64,000 nucleotides of DNA, taken from the NCBI GenBank assembly GCA_044866775.1, contig JBIOUG010000095.1:4415-68414 (forward strand). Reading direction: 5' to 3'. A program made the translations under genes and the position numbers. Below the pieces are notes generated by a model, which was not told the origin of the DNA, searched no databases, and saw only the letters and a list, made by a program, of their open reading frames with translations. Source of the stretch: Thermoanaerobaculia bacterium. Its GTDB lineage: Bacteria > Acidobacteriota > Thermoanaerobaculia > Multivoradales > UBA5704. Positions within the stretch are counted from its first letter, which is position 1. Each line of letters starts with the position of its first letter. Below, piece after piece: positions 5,237 through 57,538 of this stretch.

Positions 5237-7918
5237 TCAGGTAGGCGTTCCTGTCGCGGCGATGCGGGCGCGGAGGGCCGCTATGTGAGCGGCGCGCGGC
5301 TCGGCGGCCGGGTGGTCGATGGACCGCTCGTAGTCAACGCAAACTTGCATGAGGTCGGCGGCGCGGGCCAGGTCGCTTTCCTGCTCGTAGAGGAGGCCGA
5401 GGTTCCAGCAGGCGTTCGCCTCCCCCCGCCGGTCGCCGATCTGCCGCGCGACCACGAGGCGCTGCTCGTAATACTCGATCGCCTGCCGCGGCTCCCCAAG
5501 CGCCGCATAGGCGTTAGCCACGTTGCCCAGGGCGTATCCCTCACCCCGCCGATCGCCGATCTCCCGCGAGATCACGAGGCGCTCCTCGTAATATTCGATC
5601 GCCCGCCGCGGCTCCCTAAGCGCCGCGTAGGCAAGGCCCAGGTTTCCCAGGACCTGACCCTCTCCTCGGCGATCGCCGATCTCCCGCGCGATCACGAGGT
5701 GCTGCTCGTAGTACTCGATCGCCCGCCGCGGCTCCCCAAGCGCCGCGTAGGCAAGGCCCAGGTTGCTCAGGACCTGACCCTCTCCTCGGCGATCGCCGAT
5801 CTCCCGCGCGATCACGAGGTGCTCCTCGTAATATTCGATCGCCCGCCGCGGCTCCCCAAGCACCGCGTAGGCGTTGCCCAGATTGCCGAGGGCGTTCCCT
5901 TCGCCCCGTCGATCGCCGATCTCCCGCGCGATCACGAGGTGCTGCTCGTAGTACTCGATCGCACGCCGCGGCTCCCCAAGCTCCGCGTAGGCAAAGCCCA
6001 AGTTGCCGAGGGCGTTCCCCTCTCCCTGCCGGTCGCCGATCTTCCGCGCGATGACGAGCACCTGCTCGTGGTGCTCGATCGCACGCCGGGGCTCCCCAAG
6101 GTCCGCGTAAGCGTTGCCCAGGTTGCCGAGGTGTGCTCCTTCCGCAGCCCGGTTGTTCATGCGCCGCGCGGCCACGACCGCCGATTGCAGCCAGCCCACC
6201 CGTTGCCGCGGATGGAGGCGGAGGTGAAGACAGTAGGCCCCGACGTTGGGGTAGTCGCTGCACAGCGCGGCGGCCCGCTCGTCGTCCGCGGCGCGCGCCG
6301 CGGACCAGGCCTGGCCGGCCTCGACGTTCCTCCGCTCGGCGTCGAAGAGCGCCAGCCCGGCCAGCAAGGAAGCGCCACCCTTCAGGTACAGCACGTTCGC
6401 CGACCGCAGCACCCCTGCGTAGTGGGCCGCGTGGCGCCGCTCGCTCTGGTCGCGCTCGGCCTCGGCGAGTTGCGCGCCGGCGAAGTCGCGGGCCAGGTCG
6501 TGGAGGCGATAGCGGCCGTCCTCCCACTCGACGAGGCTGGCGTTGACCAGCTCGCCCAGAGTGTCGCGGGCGGGAGCAACCTCCACCTCCCATACCGCGG
6601 CGGCGCCGGCAGCGTCGAAGGTGCCGGGGAAGACGGCGAGTGTTCGCCAGTGGGCGCGGAGCTCTTCGGCAAGCAGTTCGTAGCTGGTGGCGAGCGCGCC
6701 CTCGATCAGGCCGAGGCGCTCCTTGGCGTCGGCGAGCTTGCGGGCGTACTCCTCGGGCGTGAGCCATGGCTTCTCGGCGAGCGCGCTGCCGGCGAGGCGG
6801 AGAGCGAAGGGGAGGCGGCCGCAGCGGCGGGCGATCTCGGCGGCCTGGTTCCCGATGCGGGGTGCGATGCGCAGCAGCAGCGTCTGGGCGTCGGCCCCGG
6901 GCAGTTCGTCGAGGTCCTTGGCGACAAGACCGGGCAGGGTGAAATGAAAGCGTGAAGTAACGAGGAGGAAGCACCCGGCAGGCGGAGTGAGCGGCTCCAC
7001 CTGCGCGCGGCCGGCGGCGTTGTCCATGAGCAGGAGGGCGCGCTGGCCGTGGAGGGAGGAACGGTAGAGCCCGTCCAGCTCGGCCGCGGAATCCGGTAGC
7101 TGCGCCGTCGGATGGTAAGCGCGGACAACGTGCGCCATCGCCAGGGCGGCGGTGAGCGGCTGCGGACTGACGCCCTTGAGATCGAGGTAAAGCTGCGCGT
7201 CGGTGTAGAGGGGCGTCAGCTCCTGCGCGAGCTTGAGCGCCAGGGCGGTCTTGCCGATGCCACCGGCGCCGCGGACAACCAAGGTCGCAGCGCCGCCAAG
7301 CTCCAAGGCCGCCCGGAGCTCCGCCAGCTCCATTTCCCGGCCGGTGAAGTCAGCAGGCGGGGACGGGATCTGATGGAGAGCTTGGGGCAGGGTCGGTATG
7401 GGCTGCTGTCCGACCTCGGGACTATGCTGTAAATCGCTTCCTGGCTCCCGCGGCTGGCGCCCCCCGTCCAACAGCCTGCGCACCTCCTTCGCGATCTTTG
7501 CCAGCTCGGCGTTTCGCTGTTCCCCGCGGAAGCTAGCGAGAGCGCGGCCGCCGCGTGGCCGCACCTGCATCGCAGCCAGCCAGGGGACCTCGTCCCACGC
7601 GCAGGCGCTGACGATCACTGGCAGCACGTGGATGCCGTCGGCGGCGCGACGCTCGAGGAGGCGGTGCACCTCCTCGCGCAAGATGAACCTGGACGTCAGT
7701 GAGTGGGCTGAAACGAGGAGGACGGCAACCTCCGCCCGTTCCATCGCGGCGCTGATCTCGCCAAGCCAGTCGCCGCCGCCGGTAGTCCTATCGTCGTCCC
7801 AGGTCTCGAGAAGCCCCTGCTGTTCCAGGACACCGAGATGGGAGACGAGCTGGTCCTTCCAGCGGCTGTCTTTGTGGCTGTAGCTGACGAAGACCGTCCG
7901 CGAGGGCACTCCCACCAT
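5237..7918 (-). CDS. TIR - NB-ARC (STAND P-loop NTPase) - TPR repeat protein (bacterial NLR-like, presumed antiphage or signalling)
   Basis: N-terminal TIR_2-like segment VFVSYSHKDSRWKDQLVSHL...AVLLVSAHSLTSRFILREEV. Walker A is VVRGAGGIGKTALALKLA and Walker B-like is RALLLMDNA. The C-terminus carries 6 near-identical plus 1 divergent 40-aa TPR units (GEPRRAIEYYEQHLVIAREIGDRRGEGNALGNLGNAYAAL). Start is placed at MVGVPSRTVFVSY (7918); an alternative ATG lies at 8032. Confidence 0.85.
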   Translation of the reverse strand: MVGVPSRTVFVSYSHKDSRWKDQLVSHLGVLEQQGLLETWDDDRTTGGGDWLGEISAAMERAEVAVLLVSAHSLTSRFILREEVHRLLERRAADGIHVLPVIVSACAWDEVPWLAAMQVRPRGGRALASFRGEQRNAELAKIAKEVRRLLDGGRQPREPGSDLQHSPEVGQQPIPTLPQALHQIPSPPADFTGREMELAELRAALELGGAATLVVRGAGGIGKTALALKLAQELTPLYTDAQLYLDLKGVSPQPLTAALAMAHVVRAYHPTAQLPDSAAELDGLYRSSLHGQRALLLMDNAAGRAQVEPLTPPAGCFLLVTSRFHFTLPGLVAKDLDELPGADAQTLLLRIAPRIGNQAAEIARRCGRLPFALRLAGSALAEKPWLTPEEYARKLADAKERLGLIEGALATSYELLAEELRAHWRTLAVFPGTFDAAGAAAVWEVEVAPARDTLGELVNASLVEWEDGRYRLHDLARDFAGAQLAEAERDQSERRHAAHYAGVLRSANVLYLKGGASLLAGLALFDAERRNVEAGQAWSAARAADDERAAALCSDYPNVGAYCLHLRLHPRQRVGWLQSAVVAARRMNNRAAEGAHLGNLGNAYADLGEPRRAIEHHEQVLVIARKIGDRQGEGNALGNLGFAYAELGEPRRAIEYYEQHLVIAREIGDRRGEGNALGNLGNAYAVLGEPRRAIEYYEEHLVIAREIGDRRGEGQVLSNLGLAYAALGEPRRAIEYYEQHLVIAREIGDRRGEGQVLGNLGLAYAALREPRRAIEYYEERLVISREIGDRRGEGYALGNVANAYAALGEPRQAIEYYEQRLVVARQIGDRRGEANACWNLGLLYEQESDLARAADLMQVCVDYERSIDHPAAEPRAAHIAALRARIAATGTPT
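5395..6135. repeat. six tandem 120-bp repeats (coding the TPR units of the STAND protein)
   Basis: The sequence lines 5401-6130 are in exact 120-bp register, for example the recurring cgccgatctcccgcgcgatcacgaggtgctgctcgtagtactcgatcgcccgccgcggctccccaagcgccgcgtaggc. Confidence 0.9.
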
Positions 7919-8040
7919 TTTAGCGGCAGTGAGATCGTGGGCGGCAGGCGCCGCGCTCCCCCACCCGGATCCTTCGCTGCGCGCTCCGGGACCGCGTCGG
8001 ACGTCCGCCTCCGCGCCAGGGCGCGCGATCACGATGGCGC

Positions 8041-8481
8041 GCGCTCGACCACCGTCACGAGCGCTCCATCCCCGGAATGGGAGCTCAGTTAGGCGGCCGG
8101 ACGCTCCGTCGCCGTTCCGGTGGCCCGATTACCATTCTCGGCGCTCGAATACTTGTTCCGAGCGCGCAATTACCCCTCCGGGCGCGCAAGTTCCGACTTC
8201 GGCGCTCAAGTTCCGTTCCGGGCACTCGATCACCATTTCAGGCGCTCGAGTTCCGATCTGGGCGCGAAACTATCGTTCTCGGCACTCAAGCACCAATCCG
8301 GGCGCTCAAGTTCCAATTTCGGCGCTCGAGTTCCGTTCCGGGCGCTCGATAACCGCTTTCGGCGCGCGATCATCATTCAGGACACGCAAATCACCAGTCC
8401 GGGCACTCGATCACCGCCTCGGCCCGCCAAGGTCCGTCTCCGGCGCTTGGGTTCGCTGATCGGCGCTCCACCGCCGTCTGT
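8041..8481. repeat. tandem array of about 22 units of 20 bp (consensus about GGCGCTCRAGTTCCGNTYYS, with a GGCACTCGATCACC variant)
   Basis: 18 units lie in perfect 20-bp phase from 8041 to 8400, for example ggcgctcaagttccgttccg, ggcactcgatcaccatttca, ggcgctcgagttccgatctg. A 1-nt slip and 4 more units follow. The array is intergenic, between divergent genes starting at 7918 (-) and 8539 (+). Confidence 0.9.
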
Positions 8482-51811: not shown

Positions 51812-51965
51812 CGCCCTTGAGCCGAACACCAGACGGCCGTAGAGCTCGGACGTCCGTTGCTCGGCAATCGTCCGTTGGCGACGGGGGCGAACTAGGGACC
51901 TTGGGGATCAGGTCGAGGAGGCGGTCGAGGTAGCGTGTCGCACAGGGGGACGCACAAGATGGCAC
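51812..51965 (-). pseudogene. fragments paralogous to the genes at 54217-54750 and 52823-53566
   Basis: 51812-51881 is about 80% identical to 54399-54468 (RQRTIAEQRTSELYGRLVF versus RQRGIAEQRTTELYGRMVF). 51895-51935 resembles 52905-52935 (YLDRLLDLIPKV versus HLDRLLEIILKV). Neither fragment has an intact ORF. Confidence 0.45.
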
Positions 51966-52161: not shown

Positions 52162-52509
52162 TCACCCGGGCGGAACGCCGAGGGCGATCATCAGGGCCCG
52201 ATCGACTCGGCGCATCACAGCGGCAGGGAGGGTTGCGGCGGGGCCCTGGAGCTGCTCCTTCCAGAGAGTGTAGATCTCGGCGCACTTGACGACGCTGGCT
52301 CGCTGGAGGCCGGCCGTTCCCTTCGGCAAGCTGACCTCCCAGTCGAAGTCGCGTCCCAAGCGGCCGACGGAAGTCAAGTGCACGACCAGCACTTTCAGGT
52401 AGCGCTCGTTGGCGTTGAAGGCGTCGTCCGAGACCACGAGCATCGGCCGGCGCTTCTCTGCTGCGCCACGCATCGGCACTTTTGCCCACCAGATCTCGCC
52501 ACGCCGCAT
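52162..52509 (-). CDS. type II toxin, PemK/MazF family
   Basis: MRRGEIWWAKVP....RRPMLVVSDDAFN...LKVLVVHLTS...SVVKCAEIYTL is the MazF pattern. The start is placed at the internal Met; the track ORF extends to 52569 and overlaps the antitoxin gene out of frame. Confidence 0.8.
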   Translation of the reverse strand: MRRGEIWWAKVPMRGAAEKRRPMLVVSDDAFNANERYLKVLVVHLTSVGRLGRDFDWEVSLPKGTAGLQRASVVKCAEIYTLWKEQLQGPAATLPAAVMRRVDRALMIALGVPPG

Positions 52510-52513
52510 TGCC

Positions 52514-52759
52514 TTACTCTTCGCGGTCGAAGGCTTGGACGTCGATGAGCCCTTCGTCTTCGTCGCCATACCCGCGGTCGCAATAGGTCGCCACCTGCTC
52601 TGCCAAGAGATCCCGCCGCACTCGCTCGAGCTTCTCGTCGATGGCCTCGCGGATGAGCTCCGAGCTGGTGCGGTAGCGGCCGGTCTCCACGATCTCTCGG
52701 ATGCGCTCCAACTGGGCCGGCTCGGCGGTGAACACGGTCTTGCGCTTGGAAGCTGCCAT
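52514..52759 (-). CDS. ribbon-helix-helix antitoxin (CopG/ParD-like)
   Basis: RKTVFTAEPAQLERIREIVETGRYRTSSELIREAIDEKLE. Has an acidic C-terminus and lies 4 nt upstream of the MazF-like gene. Confidence 0.75.
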   Translation of the reverse strand: MAASKRKTVFTAEPAQLERIREIVETGRYRTSSELIREAIDEKLERVRRDLLAEQVATYCDRGYGDEDEGLIDVQAFDREE

Positions 52760-52822: not shown

Positions 52823-53566
52823 TCACGCCCCGAGCAGCCTCGGCAGGTACTCCGCCAACGCCGGCAGGTACACATGCGCCTTCGCCAGCAGCGCCTCGAC
52901 CTTGAGGATGATCTCGAGCAGGCGGTCGAGGTGATCCAGGTTCAGCGCCCCGCCCTGCTTCTTCACCCGCAGGTAGTGGACGGTGAGCTTGCCGACGGCG
53001 CGCTCGACGGCCTCCTCGAGGCCGCGGGCGCCGTGGATGCGGTAGTCGGCGACGGCGGCGCGGAGGGACTGGAGGATGTCGAGGGAGACCGAGCGGAGGG
53101 CGGGGTCGAGCTCGGCGCGGGCGGAGAAGGCGAAGAGGGAGTTGAGGCGGGCCTCGAGCTCGGCCAGGTCGTCGGGCGGCAGGATTAGCTCGGGGAGCTC
53201 CTCGGCGATGCGCAGGCCGCAGAACTCGACGGACTGGAGGACGATGTCGGAGAGGCCCTCCTGGAACGGGGGGTAGCGGCGGGAGTCCTGGTCGAGGCGG
53301 GCGGAGAGGAGGCCCTTCCTGGCCGCCGGGAAGTGGCGGAGGTAGCGCGGGGGGTCGAGGCCGGGGATCGCGGCGATCGCGGCCTGGGACTGGGCGAAGA
53401 GGTCGTCGAGGAGGACGAGCTTGCGGCGGATCGCGAGGTCGTCGGCGGGGTCGAGGTCGAAGACCTCGCCCAGGGCGTCGCGGATGGGGCGGCCCTCGCG
53501 GCAAGCGGCGCGCAGGGCGAGCAGGAGGCGGTGGAGGCGGAGGGCGGAGTTGGTCATGCGGTCCAT
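52823..53566 (-). CDS. hypothetical alpha-helical protein (247 aa)
   Basis: High third-position GC. The N-terminus MDRMTNSALRLHR is shared with the upstream pseudogene. No motif recognised. Confidence 0.6.
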   Translation of the reverse strand: MDRMTNSALRLHRLLLALRAACREGRPIRDALGEVFDLDPADDLAIRRKLVLLDDLFAQSQAAIAAIPGLDPPRYLRHFPAARKGLLSARLDQDSRRYPPFQEGLSDIVLQSVEFCGLRIAEELPELILPPDDLAELEARLNSLFAFSARAELDPALRSVSLDILQSLRAAVADYRIHGARGLEEAVERAVGKLTVHYLRVKKQGGALNLDHLDRLLEIILKVEALLAKAHVYLPALAEYLPRLLGA

Positions 53567-53575
53567 GGGGAGGCC

Positions 53576-54127
53576 TCAGTCCTCTCCGATCGTCTGCGCC
53601 TCGCCCTCGACGTCGGGCGCGGGGGTCCGCCAGTCGCGGCCGACATGCACCTCGTGCTTGCCGGGCGCGCCCCAGCGGACGAGGACCAAGTCGACGGGAT
53701 CGCGCCAGCCGTTGCGGGGCGGCTGGGCCGGCCGCTCGAGGCTGGCGAGGAGGCCGCCGTCGAAGCGGCAGGCCGAGCACCATGCGCAGGAGGGCCGCGG
53801 CGGCCTGGTTGCGCGGGACCTCCGTGTTGGTGCGCAGGCCCGGCGCGAAGGGCTCGCCGTCCGGCGAGGCGAGCGCGTGGTAGAGGCGGAGGGCGCGGCC
53901 GAGCCAGTCGAGGGCCAGGGCGCGGAGCTTCGGGGCGCCGGGCCGCCGGCGAGACCGAGGATGCGGCGGTAGTAGGGCACCTCGCGCGGGTCGGAGACGA
54001 TCTTGCCGGCGAGGCAGTCGGCGAGGCGGGCTTGGAGGGCGACGTGGGCGCGTTGCGCAGGGCGCATCGGGAACCTCCATGAGTCGGGGCGGTGGAGGCG
54101 GGGGGCGGAGTTGGTGGTACGTTGCAT
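53576..54127 (-). pseudogene. hypothetical gene with two compensating frameshifts
   Basis: The ends are in one frame (MQRTTNSAPRLHR...PREVPYYRRILGLAGG and FDGGLLASLERPAQPPRNGWRDPVDLVLVRWGAPGKHEVHVG). The middle codes convincingly only in another frame, with nearly 100% GC3 (PKLRALALDWLGRALRLYHALASPDGEPFAPGLRTNTEVPRNQAAAALLRMVLGLP). Confidence 0.5.
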
Positions 54128-54216
54128 GGGCTCTCGTTCGACGCGGGCGCGTTGAGGGAGGGCGGTGCGCCGCCGGCGGAGGTCAGATCTCCGCCGGCGG
54201 CCGTTGGTTTTGCCCG

Positions 54217-54663
54217 TCAGGGCTTGCGGGTCGGCTCCTCCTGAGCCGGGGCCGGAGCCGGGCCGGGCGGTTGCGGTGGCGGGACGGCGCCAGGCGCCGG
54301 CGGGGTCGTCTCCTCCTCCTCCTCCTTCTTTGCGGGTCCAGGGAAGGCGTTGGGCCGGAGGCCGAGCTCGTGGAGGACGTTGGCGCGCTTGCCGTAGGTG
54401 CCCTTGAGGACGAACACCATGCGGCCGTAGAGCTCGGTAGTGCGTTGCTCGGCGATGCCCCGTTGGCGGTTTGCCTCGCGGAGGCGGCCTTCGTGGACAT
54501 CGGCCTGGGTGAGGAGGGCGTCGATCTGCTGGACGAGGGCGGTCAGCTCCGCGTGGTCCTCCCTGAGGAAGGAGACCTCCTCGATGCGGGGCTTGAGACC
54601 CTCCGCGAGCACTCTCCAGTCCTGGAGCTTGTCTGCTAGCGATCCGTCGGGCACGGCGGTCAT
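54217..54663 (-). CDS. hypothetical coiled-coil protein with Pro/Glu-rich tail
   Basis: MTAVPDGSLADKLQDWRVLAEGLKPRIEEV.... The ATG at 54663 overlaps the stop of the upstream repeat ORF (ATGA). The track ORF extends to 54750, into the 21-bp array. Confidence 0.5.
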   Translation of the reverse strand: MTAVPDGSLADKLQDWRVLAEGLKPRIEEVSFLREDHAELTALVQQIDALLTQADVHEGRLREANRQRGIAEQRTTELYGRMVFVLKGTYGKRANVLHELGLRPNAFPGPAKKEEEEETTPPAPGAVPPPQPPGPAPAPAQEEPTRKP

Positions 54664-55016
54664 CTCCTTTCGTTGCTCAAGACGAGCGAGGAAGCGCTCC
54701 GGATAGAGCTCCGGGCGCTGGGGATACATCTCCGAGCGCTGGGGATACATCCCCGGTCGTTGGTGATGTATCTCCGGTTGTCGGTGATGTATCTCCCGTC
54801 ATTGGTGATGTATCTCCGGCCGTTGGAGATAGATCCCCAGGCGCTGGGGATGAATCTCCGGGCGCTGGGGATACATCCCCCAGGCGCTGGGGATAGATCC
54901 CCAGGCGTCGGGGATAGATCCCCGGGCGTGGGGGACACATCTCCGGCGGCTGCTACGACAACTTCCAGGGCCCGGATCGTCACCCCGCCCTCTGGCGCGG
55001 TTCCGCCGTCCGTCAC
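54660..55016 (-). CDS. possible heptad-repeat ORF spanning the 21-bp array (coding status unresolved)
   Basis: 118-codon ORF bounded by a GTGA overlap with the upstream gene (55013-55016) and an ATGA overlap with the downstream gene (54660-54663). It reads GDVSPTP GDLSPTP GDLSPAP then RRFIPSA RRYITND... Third-position GC is only moderate, and other frames are also open. Confidence 0.3.
   Translation of the reverse strand: MTDGGTAPEGGVTIRALEVVVAAAGDVSPTPGDLSPTPGDLSPAPGGCIPSARRFIPSAWGSISNGRRYITNDGRYITDNRRYITNDRGCIPSARRCIPSARSSIRSASSLVLSNERR
54694..54946. repeat. tandem array of about 13 units of 21 bp with a palindromic core (GGGGAT-AC-ATCCCC)
   Basis: Examples are gcgctggggatacatctccga (54715), gcgctggggatacatccccgg (54736), tcgttggtgatgtatctccgg (54757) and gcgctggggatagatccccag (54884). 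One unit has 22 bp (54862-54883). Confidence 0.9.
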
Positions 55017-55321
55017 GCCCCGAACTCCAGCGCCTCGGCCACCAGGAAGTCCCGCTCGGTGACGCCGTCGACCGCCGCCGTCGAGAGGTTGACGACGACG
55101 GTGCCCGGCGTCAGGGTCATCGTCGCTTCGCCCTCGTGGTAGTCGATGACGGAGGCGAGGGCGCTCGCGAAGGAGCTGCCGACGTAAAGGCTGGGGACGC
55201 TCCAGGTGCGGCGGATGGCCCTGCCGTCGCGCCGGAGCTCCCAGGTGGGGAGCCGCTCGAGGAGCGCTTGGATGCGCTCGGCCTTGAGCTGCTCGGTGAT
55301 GGGTCTGCGGCTCTCGTTCAT
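55013..55321 (-). CDS. pterin-4a-carbinolamine dehydratase (PCD/DCoH)-fold protein, catalytic His motif not conserved
   Basis: MNESRRPITEQLKAERIQALLERLPTWELRRDGRAIRRTW.....FASALASVIDYHEGEATMTLTPGTVVVNLSTAAVDGVTERDFLVAEAL parallels the PCD pattern, but YHEGEA replaces the HHP motif. A GGAGG lies 9 nt upstream of the ATG at 55321. Confidence 0.5.
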   Translation of the reverse strand: MNESRRPITEQLKAERIQALLERLPTWELRRDGRAIRRTWSVPSLYVGSSFASALASVIDYHEGEATMTLTPGTVVVNLSTAAVDGVTERDFLVAEALEFGA

Positions 55322-55385
55322 CTCAGGTTCCTCCAGGACTTCAGGGGCGCCGGGAGGCTCCAGTGCCTCCGGCGGGACAGCGGTC

Positions 55386-55447
55386 TTGCTACTCCAACCA
55401 AGCCCCCGCCGCTTCGCGGCCCACCCTGACCGGCTTCGCCGGTCAGC
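55386..55447. repeat. 62-bp element, copy 1 (inverted relative to copy 2)
   Basis: ttgctactccaaccaagcccccgccgcttcgcggcccaccctgaccggcttcgccggtcagc. It contains two hairpins, gccgc-ttc-gcggc and ctgaccggc-ttc-gccggtcag. It is intergenic, just 3' of the 55450..56940 gene. Confidence 0.9.
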
Positions 55448-55449
55448 GG

Positions 55450-56940
55450 TCATCGCGCCGCTCCTCCGCCGCGGCGGCGCGCGCCGGCGGCGGTGAAGGG
55501 AAGGAGGTTCGACTGCGGAGGACGGCGGCGCAGCGGCTCGGTCAGCGCCGGATCGAAGAGGACGCCGAGCCCGCGCAGCGGCCCCGGGCCTCCCGGCACG
55601 CGCTGCCCGAAGCGGCGCTGGAGGCCGGCGATGCGCTCGGCCTCGGCGCTCCCGCCGCGGAGCAGCCCGCGCAGCTCGCGCAGGAGGGCGCGCAGCTCGC
55701 TCGGCAGCGTCTCGGGGGCGAAGAGCGGCTCGATCTCGTCGGCCAGGGCGGCGAGACGCCCGCGCCGCTGCTCATCGGCAAACAGGACGGCGAGGTGGAA
55801 GGCCGCCGCGGCCGCCTCGCCCCAAGCGCTCGCCCCCTTGGCGGCGGCGAGCGCCTCGCGGAGCAGGCGCTCGGTCGCCTCGCGGTCGCCCGCCTCGGCG
55901 GTGAGCCAGGCCCGCGTCAGGAGGGCCAGGGCGGGAGTCCCCGCTCCCGCGGCCGTCGCCTGCCGCTCGGCCTCGGCGAGGGCCTCCTGCGCCGCCCATG
56001 GGTGACCGACCGCGGCGTGCATGAAGGCGAGGAGGAGCCGCTCGCGGAGCGCTTCGGCCGGCGCCAGCCACGCCTCGCGCAGCGCGAGCGACCGCCCGGA
56101 GAGCGCGAGCGCCCGCTCGGTGTCTCCCTCGCGGGCGTAGATCGCCGCCTGGTCGGCGACGGCGAGGGACTCCTCCACCGTCTCGCCCCTGCGGTGGAAG
56201 AGACTCTCCGCCCGCTCGAGCAGTGCCAGCGCCTCGTGGATCCGCCGCTGGCGGTCGCGGACGCCGGCGAGGAGGCGACAGAAGACCGCCGCCTCGACGT
56301 CCTCTGGATCGGCGATGTGGCTCTCCGCGACCCGGAAGGCCAGCTCGCCCGGGTCCTGGGGCAGCCGCTCGATGAGCTCGGTGTAGCCGCACAGCATGTG
56401 GACGCGCGCCTTCAAGTCGGCGAGGAGCGCCGGCGGCAGGCCGGCTTTCTCGACGGCGCAGCTCAGGTGGAAGGCGGCCTCGGCGAGCGCGTGGCCGCGG
56501 CTCGGGAAGGGGTAGCTCTCCTCGTAGGCGCGGTCGAGGACCCGCAGCAGGATGGCGACCGCCTGCGGCGCCGGCTTCTGCCGGAGCTCGCGCTCCATCT
56601 TCCTGACCGGCAGCGCGAGGAGCCCCTCGATCGCGGCGTCGGCCTCCGCGGCCGCCATGGCGACCGCCGTCGACGACGCGCTCGGCTCCGCAGCGAGGCG
56701 CGTGAAGACGCTCTCGTAGAGCTGACCGGCGAAGCCGGTCAGGGTGGGCCGCGAAGCGGCGGGGGCTTGGTCGGAGTAGCAAACCCGCGCCGCCCCGGCC
56801 TCGGGCGCGAGCTCCGGCAGCAGCCGGCGCACGCGGCGGCGGCAGAGGCGGCAGGCGAGGAGGTGATGGAGGTGCTGGAGCTGCGGGGCGGCGAGGCCGT
56901 CGGCCAGGCGGGCGAGATCGTCGAAGGGGACGTGCGCCAC
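55450..56940 (-). CDS. hypothetical regulator-like protein: N-terminal HxxxCxxC zinc-finger (zf-HC2-like) + alpha-helical/TPR-like body
   Basis: LQHLHHLLACRLCRRRV lies near the N-terminus. The body is long, Ala/Leu/Glu-rich and helical. The gene has a GTG start and is divergent from an XRE-type HTH gene. Confidence 0.55.
   Translation of the reverse strand: MAHVPFDDLARLADGLAAPQLQHLHHLLACRLCRRRVRRLLPELAPEAGAARVCYSDQAPAASRPTLTGFAGQLYESVFTRLAAEPSASSTAVAMAAAEADAAIEGLLALPVRKMERELRQKPAPQAVAILLRVLDRAYEESYPFPSRGHALAEAAFHLSCAVEKAGLPPALLADLKARVHMLCGYTELIERLPQDPGELAFRVAESHIADPEDVEAAVFCRLLAGVRDRQRRIHEALALLERAESLFHRRGETVEESLAVADQAAIYAREGDTERALALSGRSLALREAWLAPAEALRERLLLAFMHAAVGHPWAAQEALAEAERQATAAGAGTPALALLTRAWLTAEAGDREATERLLREALAAAKGASAWGEAAAAAFHLAVLFADEQRRGRLAALADEIEPLFAPETLPSELRALLRELRGLLRGGSAEAERIAGLQRRFGQRVPGGPGPLRGLGVLFDPALTEPLRRRPPQSNLLPFTAAGARRRGGGAAR
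56721..56782. repeat. 62-bp element, copy 2 (inside the 5' part of the 55450..56940 CDS, in frame)
   Basis: Its reverse complement matches copy 1 at 61 of 62 positions. It encodes CYSDQAPAASRPTLTGFAGQ within the protein. Confidence 0.9.
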
Positions 56941-57121: not shown

Positions 57122-57538
57122 GTGGAACCCCGCCCGCCGGGACGGCTCGACACGGAGACCATGCGGGAGGCGCTCAGGCGCCGCATTCGCCGTGAGGGGC
57201 TGACCCTGCGTCAGGTCGAGGAGCGGCTGGGGCGGAAGGGCGACTACCTGCGGCAGGTGCTGGCCGGGAAGATCGACCTGCGGTGGGACCACGTGGCCGG
57301 CATCCTCGCCGCCCTCGGCGTCCACCCCGTCGAGTTCTTCGAGGAGGTCTACGGCCCGGCGCCGAGCCGCGCCGCGCCGGCCGGCTCCGCGGCCACCCCG
57401 TACGCGACGAGCAGTCAGCTCGTCCGCTGGTCGAGCCTCCGCGTCCTCATCTGGGAGTTCAAGGAGAAGGGCATCTTCACGGCCGAGGAGGCCGAACGGT
57501 TGCTGGCGAAGCTCGAGAGCGAGCCGCCGCCGGTGTAG
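57122..57538 (+). CDS. XRE-family helix-turn-helix transcriptional regulator
   Basis: LTLRQVEERLGRKGDYLRQVLAGKIDLRWDHVAGILAALGVHPVEFF. The start is uncertain: a GTG at 57122 or an internal ATG. Confidence 0.7.
   Translation: MEPRPPGRLDTETMREALRRRIRREGLTLRQVEERLGRKGDYLRQVLAGKIDLRWDHVAGILAALGVHPVEFFEEVYGPAPSRAAPAGSAATPYATSSQLVRWSSLRVLIWEFKEKGIFTAEEAERLLAKLESEPPPV

Follow-up and report, generated by a model that had tools for sequence, protein, structure and literature searches.

What is encoded by a chain of unfamiliar minus-strand reading frames built around a tandem repeat, and what is the repeat for? We addressed this question at positions 52,823 to 55,321 of a 64,000-nucleotide stretch of DNA from a Thermoanaerobaculia bacterium (hereafter the window; G000:C95:4415-68414), which belongs to a metagenome-assembled genome of 5.8 Mb in 196 contigs, with about 72% GC and a completeness of 92%. 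The list of open reading frames (ORFs) places five on the minus strand here: one at 55013-55453 for a protein resembling pterin-4a-carbinolamine dehydratase (PCD), a repeat ORF at 54660-55016, a coiled-coil ORF at 54217-54750/54663, and two more at 53576-54127 and 52823-53566. An earlier note on this DNA had suggested that they may form a single five-gene operon. Our analysis shows that the locus belongs, as a copy in partial decay, to an undescribed, lineage-specific and highly multiplied family of cassettes. The core of the cassette begins with a non-coding array, in which about 5-15 units of 20 or 21 bp, each with a locus-specific palindrome, stand in tandem; then come a strong Shine-Dalgarno (SD) sequence with the coiled-coil gene (hereafter CC) and a GC-rich hairpin. 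The PCD-like gene often stands immediately upstream, genes for XRE-type and tetratricopeptide repeat (TPR) proteins often further upstream, and a genus-specific cargo of genes for 137-, 314-, 247- and 204-aa proteins, frequently broken, downstream. This descriptive result, comprising the corrected gene models, the decayed copy and the new lineage-specific family of array and CC with or without a PCD-like gene, is solid. In a literature search, no paper turned up that describes arrays of this kind in Thermoanaerobaculia or Acidobacteria.

CC (54217-54654, minus strand) encodes a helical protein of 145 aa and is the founding member of its family. We placed its start at the GTG at 54654 because the GGAG at 54667-54664 abuts an ATG but stands 9 nt before this GTG, and because orthologues start MPD... 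after AAGGAG; a 96%-identical orthologue, at locus L063, uses GTG. The GTGA (55016-55013) and ATGA (54663-54660) overlaps from which the earlier note had deduced coupled translation are indeed present, but the coupling itself did not stand, since with CC starting at 54654 the second overlap is coincidental, and the repeat ORF is not a gene. The AlphaFold2 (AF2) model of CC (pLDDT 81) has helices at residues 9-26 and 31-90, a short helix and a 60-residue helix, and a disordered tail. Members of the family are about 125-145 aa long, most with an arginine-rich C-terminal tail, and 144 representatives share W13, L16, P28, R65, G72, R76, R78, G88, L94, F97, G98 and P101 ahead of the Arg/Lys-rich tail, a pattern that is compatible with nucleic-acid binding.

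Fifteen nucleotides past the CC stop lies a GC-rich hairpin with a 13-15-bp stem (54169-54201), likely a terminator or a cassette boundary. Hairpins of this kind are the rule: 20 of 26 CC genes have, no more than 45 nt past the stop, one with a folding energy of -25 kcal/mol or lower; the median is -30, compared with -18 in shuffled sequence. An identical 33-nt hairpin, GCCGCCGGCGGAGATCTGACCTCCGCCGGCGGC, follows eight CC genes, divergent clades included (L047-L051, L055 and L058 of genome G151, and 54169-54201 of the window), and may act as a common cassette boundary. Array, SD, ORF and hairpin thus seem to make up a unit complete in itself. The idea of one five-gene operon is contradicted by this hairpin, which follows the CC gene, and by the 247-aa gene, which also occurs on its own and is single-copy in this genome. 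A scan for sigma-70 promoters found none.

Upstream of CC, at 54694-54946, Tandem Repeats Finder, a repeat finder and a motif scan all located an array of 12 tandem units, each 21 bp long except for one of 22 bp. Each unit bears the palindrome GGRGAT-NN-ATCYCC, and the array ends 40 nt upstream of the CC start. Its units are contiguous, without the spacers of a CRISPR array. At L063 the array has nine units with an identical core, so that unit number differs (12 versus 9) between near-identical strains. An open frame does run across the array, as had been noticed; its status as a gene did not survive. Because all three sense frames of the 21-bp unit are free of stop codons, and ORFs over the array are listed in four frames, the open frame is uninformative. 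The single 22-bp unit changes the encoded repeat peptide in mid-array. Equivalent arrays at homologous positions of paralogous and orthologous loci have other cores and lie in other frames, no repeat peptide is conserved from one locus to another, and one clade has a period of 20, which is incompatible with a conserved coding repeat. Two database proteins, P0095 and P0142, have N-terminal extensions that are translated arrays.

How widespread is the cassette? Searches with tblastn and a hidden Markov model (HMM) found 25 CC matches in the same genome, which, with six PCD-like copies and the variable, lower-GC setting of the module, supports the suspicion of a multi-copy, island-borne element. 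A CC profile run against 1.84 billion representative sequences retrieved 1190 clusters at E<=1e-3, nearly all of 110-165 aa. Of 24 genomes sampled from the host family, 22 contained CC, with between 4 and 48 matches per genome; CC gave no match in 16 genomes of other families in the same order or in 150 other genomes sampled across the phylum. Phages and plasmids gave no match by tblastn, and no relatives turned up on viral contigs. None of the CC, 314-aa and 247-aa proteins has a name in any source; CC, the 183-aa ORF and the 247-aa protein of the window have no significant match in Pfam, NCBIfam, PADLOC or PHROGs, consistent with the earlier failure to recognize a motif in the downstream proteins.

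The array and CC are associated. In G151, a complete genome of the same genus, a period-20/21 (or 42) array ends 20-200 nt before the start of 15 of the 16 CC genes; of the 25 CC matches in the window's own genome, at least 15 have an array upstream, and among 19 loci from other genera it lies upstream of CC in 12 and downstream in 3. Periods 20 and 21 dominate the tandem repeats of the genome, which holds 74 arrays (period 19-22, at least 3.5 copies), about 60 of them intergenic. CC is the sole gene family to recur as the next gene after an array, preceded by an SD; this holds for 10 arrays by strict criteria, and a family resembling the 137-aa protein occupies that position twice. Arrays of at least seven copies number 6.5 per Mb in this genome and four in 400 kb of the CC-positive G151; none was found in 720 kb of G172, a CC-negative genome of the same family, or in 400 kb of G180, from another family. 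In this small sample of genomes, the co-distribution of array and CC is suggestive.

The best-conserved gene pair of the chain joins CC to the PCD-like gene (55013-55321, minus strand), for a protein of 102 aa beginning MNESRRP. We set its start at the ATG at 55321 because paralogues begin MNEPQP... and MSESPK.... The protein matches Pterin_4a (PF01329) with E=4.2e-14 and 52.9 bits (cut-off 26), covering 87 of 91 profile positions, and scores under all NCBIfam equivalog cut-offs. Aligned with the solved PCDs 2v6u and 2v6s, its HHP motif is replaced by G-E-A and STH by STA, so that the three catalytic histidine positions read G, E and A. These substitutions and the low equivalog scores identify a non-enzymatic version of the PCD/DCoH fold, as the earlier note had proposed from the missing HHP. 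All six PCD-like paralogues of the genome have an H(E/A)AT...LSTP pattern, and each copy lies directly upstream of an array and CC. Coordinate comparison showed CC preceded by a same-strand PCD-like gene, at a distance of 60-700 nt, at nine loci of other genomes (G151 at 2.03 Mb; G154 C50; G156 C3; G161 C241 and C140; G165 C8; and G166 C1 and, twice, C4); at two more (G151 at 0.33 Mb and G153 C323) the two genes are divergent, and at L063 the PCD-like gene is likewise upstream of CC. The adjacency extends to at least four genera. PCD-like gene, array and CC do co-occur in other genomes and genera.

What might such a protein do beside CC? A parallel is DCoH (PCBD1), the dimerization cofactor of HNF1-alpha: in both cases the protein has a Pterin_4a fold and its gene goes with one for a helical partner. 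By sequence, the PCD-like protein has four matches in the PDB, of which one is a DCoH-HNF1-alpha entry. The bacterial protein differs in lacking all three catalytic histidines, which DCoH keeps, and its CC partner is no homeodomain protein. A non-enzymatic role for the PCD-like protein is plausible; a literature search found no paper on bacterial non-enzymatic DCoH-like proteins.

Taking these features together, we tentatively favor the reading that the array is a phased DNA binding platform occupied by CC, with or without the PCD-like protein, a proposal drawn from sequence and gene order. The array would be a double-stranded platform of sites for protein dimers; because the spacing equals two helical turns, all sites would lie on one face of the helix. 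The most likely occupant would be CC itself, acting as a coiled-coil oligomer, and the resulting cooperative nucleoprotein complex could control the CC promoter or leader. The PCD-like protein, judged by gene adjacency and by analogy with DCoH and HNF1, might serve as an oligomerization cofactor. CC is the only constant neighbor of the arrays. Period-20 arrays are confined to one CC clade, and related CCs tend toward related cores. At the center of each palindrome is a gap of 0-5 nt, and several cores are perfect, for instance GGAAGCTTCC and GGCAATCGATTGCC; stem positions that depart from Watson-Crick pairing comprise 42 GT/TG, 33 AC/CA and 89 other combinations. The lack of a sense-strand wobble signal and the form of the palindromes favor double-stranded DNA sites for a dimeric protein.

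Arrays of this design are familiar from plasmid partition centromeres and iterons. The F plasmid sopC site, bound by SopB, has 12 repeats of 43 bp, each with a palindrome, and the R1 parC/ParR and pSM19035 omega sites are comparable arrays. The module in the window, with 12 units of 21 bp, the GGRGAT-NN-ATCYCC core and a position 40 nt upstream of CC, shares with them tandem direct repeats, dimer-type palindromes, helical phasing, the adjacent gene for a small oligomeric protein and a system-specific repeat; binding is only predicted here. The differences are that these arrays exist in 4-48 chromosomal copies per genome and that CC has neither a ribbon-helix-helix (RHH) nor a helix-turn-helix (HTH) fold. 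In addition, no ParA, ParM or TubZ NTPase or Rep initiator was matched by Pfam among the proteins of the window module or of the orthologous module L011, and none is among the recurrent neighbor families of 30 CC loci.

Several observations weigh against a platform bound by CC. The protein has no recognizable DNA-binding fold, matches no PDB entry in a fold search and nothing significant in the PDB by sequence profile, and in the clade to which the window's own copy belongs the tail is weakly basic. CC orthologues 70-80% identical to one another stand beside different cores: GGRGAT-NN-ATCYCC in the window, GGAAC-NNN-GTTCC at L011, an intact orthologous module in a complete 5.46-Mb genome, and GGTATCAG-CGCTGATACC at L013, a second intact module. 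Conversely, a GAAGCTTC core is found in both deep CC clades. From these two facts, CC may not be what sets specificity. Roughly 45 arrays of the window's genome have no adjacent CC gene and show no clear upstream bias, in an orientation test whose gene caller, based on GC content at third codon positions, misses small genes. Most CC loci have no PCD-like gene. Finally, the distance from array end to start codon is 20-45 nt at several loci, where the array is thus probably transcribed, which makes a role as RNA possible.

Two other schemes for specificity were considered. A regulon with one CC per core family gained no clear support from k-mer clustering of the arrays, which left some core groups without a CC-linked array. 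XRE regulators as array-specific binders were ruled out by pairs of loci (C95 versus C177, L047 versus L050) at which the recognition helices are identical and the cores differ; XRE is thus not the specificity factor of the arrays.

A more ambitious version of the platform proposal would make the CC-array pairs a new protein/nucleic-acid recognition system, in which fast-diversifying small helical proteins, each with its own phased palindrome array and a DCoH-like assembly cofactor, form locus-specific nucleoprotein switches or mobile cassette boundaries that organize the variable gene pool of one Thermoanaerobaculia family. We think it unlikely to hold. If the array is a programmable platform for CC, it would offer hundreds of natural protein/site pairs of different specificities on one small scaffold, an aid to studying the evolution of recognition and a possible source of orthogonal regulatory parts. 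The PCD-like protein would then be the first bacterial DCoH-like protein outside pterin metabolism, beside a helical partner and echoing DCoH and HNF1. Even on the dullest reading the annotation is corrected, in a family whose database entries (P0095, P0142) often carry false N-terminal "repeat domains".

An alternative that we regard as doubtful places recognition at the level of RNA. Here the array would be transcribed as a leader of tandem hairpins, with 5-8-bp stems and 3-4-nt loops, bound by the Arg-rich tail of CC so as to control read-through at the GC-rich hairpin between array and SD, or the translation or stability of the CC mRNA. The end of several arrays at 20-45 nt before the start codon, probably within the transcript, fits this model, as do the GC-rich hairpin followed by a T-containing stretch that often separates array from SD, the conserved Arg-rich tail of most family members, and the maintenance of palindromy while cores change; sense-strand GC skew is also weakly biased (19 of 27 arrays, p=0.05). 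The stems themselves argue otherwise: at unpaired positions G:U is not in excess over A:C, transversion mismatches are the commonest class, and many cores are perfect palindromes with centers of 0-2 nt. Moreover, the window's CC lacks a strongly basic tail, and Rfam gave no credible match. The precedent would be phage lambda N/boxB, in which an arginine-rich motif mediates antitermination. The two cases share a small Arg-rich protein beside small hairpins in its own leader, which also has a terminator-like hairpin; they differ in the 5-15 hairpins here versus one, the C-terminal position of the Arg-rich motif, the absence of a phage context and the lack of any RNA-specific covariation signal.

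The arrays might instead be selfish or structural repeats, tandem palindromes that grow through slippage or recombination and are carried along with mobile or fast-shuffling gene cassettes, with no specific regulatory tie to CC or the PCD-like protein. The abundance of arrays beyond CC, most of the 74 not adjoining it, speaks for such an origin, and so do the variation in unit number between strains, the frequency of cassette fragments and pseudogenes, and the location of same-core arrays beside an integrase fragment, an IS3-like transposase and a group-II-intron-like ORF or as an inverted pair on contig C11. Clusters of repetitive extragenic palindromes (REPs) and bacterial interspersed mosaic elements (BIMEs) consist of short palindromes (20-40 bp) in intergenic DNA, which can be repeated head-to-tail (PMC3733652, PMC3333891), and tandemly reiterated REPs have been described (PMC3733652); intergenic position, short palindromes and head-to-tail reiteration are common to both. 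Unlike them, the arrays here are not built on one or a few genome-wide consensus sequences but on dozens of unrelated cores; they have a period fixed at 20 or 21 bp and specific to clades, and a tight link to a single gene family, with a position upstream of CC that is kept across genera. Nor was a Y1 transposase of the REP-associated (RAYT) type found: PF01797 had no match in the 92%-complete genome, in a search whose controls matched. With no such transposase found and with highly diverse cores, we rejected the RAYT/REP model as such, and the broader selfish explanation seems to us unlikely.

Translational coupling of the first three ORFs, repeat protein included, within a five-gene operon is very improbable, for although both overlaps exist and at L063 the frame from the equivalent GTG stays open through the array into CC, open frames are unavoidable in a unit that is stop-free in all three sense frames, the 22-bp unit, the period-20 relatives and the unconserved peptides tell against a repeat protein, and CC has its own properly spaced SD before the true GTG and a hairpin behind it.

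What, then, are the remaining genes of the chain? The intact modules at L011 and L013 provide the comparison. Their upstream part consists of a small secreted Cys peptide, an H-x-C-x2-C/TPR protein of 430 aa, an XRE gene in the opposite orientation and a 254-aa TPR protein, and continues with a PCD-like remnant (71 aa), the array, CC (140 aa) and the 137-, 314-, 247- and 204-aa genes. CC, the 314-aa gene and the 247-aa gene thus occur together in orthologous loci, bearing out their co-occurrence. Using the intact L011 orthologue as a tblastn query, we found that the supposed frameshifted gene is a deletion remnant of the 314-aa gene (53582-54052, minus strand), in three pieces: residues 5-42 in frame -1, 128-183 in frame -3 and about 246-313 in frame -1. 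Two internal blocks, of about 85 and 60 residues, are therefore missing from the gene, and these deletions account for the apparent frameshifts. Intact homologues of 304-324 aa exist, and the 314-aa family comprises 14 clusters. The 137-aa gene of the intact modules had no tblastn match in the window. By this comparison the window copy has lost the 137-aa gene and retains a remnant of the 314-aa gene and an intact 247-aa gene.

The 247-aa gene (52823-53566, minus strand) encodes an all-helical orphan protein (AF2 pLDDT 84). Its 5' end is duplicated, as the earlier note had seen: a copy at 54088-54130 (minus strand), fused to the pseudogene, is 86% identical to 53527-53569. Module variants differ at this point, with the 247-aa gene directly after CC at L063 and CC, a 308-aa gene and the 247-aa gene in succession at L064, and the duplicated copy marks a recombination joint between variants such as these. 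The protein family has 21 database clusters, all from Thermoanaerobaculia; in a search of 40 relatives, the gene was confined to three of the four other genomes of the host genus, and it also occurs alone or in toxin-antitoxin or restriction-modification islands. It is split by frameshifts at G151:C1:3388962-3389703, G151:C1:3890886-3891622 and G154:C36:16983-17724, which suggests rapid decay of this cargo gene. Neither sequence profile nor fold gave a significant PDB match; a borderline hit among viral structures, to an uncharacterized Myoviridae protein (E=1.4e-3, TM 0.36), was not informative. The 137-, 314- and 204-aa proteins of L011 have nothing significant in Pfam, NCBIfam, PADLOC or PHROGs. 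The 204-aa gene (L011:10641-11255), which follows the 247-aa gene, has an H...H...C pattern reminiscent of Amidase_2/T7-lysozyme-type zinc sites without a Pfam match, and four copies of it lie downstream of CC modules in G151.

Decay extends beyond the module. The degraded second copy that had been reported at 51.8-52.0 kb was recovered by the repeat finder and tblastn as two fragments of a destroyed module at 51823-51931 (minus strand): a CC fragment (51823-51880 versus 54411-54468, 84%) and a 3' part of the 247-aa gene (51897-51931 versus 52898-52932, 86%). Between these fragments and the 247-aa gene lies a pair of an RHH antitoxin and a PemK/MazF toxin (52162-52759, minus strand; Pfam RHH_1 E=3e-6, PemK_toxin E=6e-21). 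On the upstream side, the chain is followed by a gene for a protein of 496 aa, which combines an N-terminal H-x3-C-x2-C motif with TPR-like helical repeats (55450-56940, minus strand; a weak TPR_12 match) and, divergent from the module, by one for a 138-aa XRE-type HTH regulator (57122-57538, plus strand; Pfam HTH_31 E=1.2e-7). These Pfam results agree with the earlier placement of the chain between a toxin-antitoxin pair and a pair of regulators. Paralogues of the XRE gene flank 14 of 30 CC loci examined, and paralogues of the 496-aa protein (family F2) occur at 13 of the 30, with tblastn finding them on C62 and C186.

The paralogous modules on C62, C143, C145, C177 and C186, and L011:4479-6101, contain a small signal-peptide protein in which the motif CxDPxGxPxPCP occurs twice. 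Downstream of it stand an H-x3/4-C-x2-C plus TPR protein of about 450 aa and then a divergent XRE gene, a layout that resembles RRNPP peptide-sensing modules. When this resemblance was examined, signal-peptide Cys protein, TPR protein and separate XRE were all present in the paralogous modules, the peptide gene was absent from the window copy, and no family HMM matched.

Between the TPR gene and the PCD-like gene lies a 68-nt repeat element of two GAA-loop hairpins (55380-55447). An inverted copy, 96% complementary, stands at 56721-56788 inside the 496-aa TPR ORF, so that the pair is 1273 nt apart; two further copies, on contigs C20 and C136, bring the number in the genome to four. The element could be a small element like a MITE (a miniature transposable element with inverted repeats) or a REP, or form the arms of an invertible segment.

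Arrays away from CC include several with the GGGGAT..ATCCCC core: C11:13056-13145, C11:17581-17705, C48:1526-1648, C148:14793-14957 and C42:2451-2588. The two on C11, in inverted orientation, flank 4.4 kb with a gene resembling the 137-aa gene, an HTH gene and an RHH gene; the others adjoin an integron-integrase-like C-terminal fragment, an ORF resembling a group-II-intron reverse transcriptase, and an IS3-like transposase, and some share conserved flanks. The window itself contains a second array at 8155-8347, with a period of 20, about 9.6 copies and a GGAACTTGAGCGCC-type core, 123 nt upstream of a gene for a 792-aa TIR-like protein (5657-8032, minus strand). Four other arrays of the genome have a GGAACTTGAGCGCC-type core, none of them adjoining CC.

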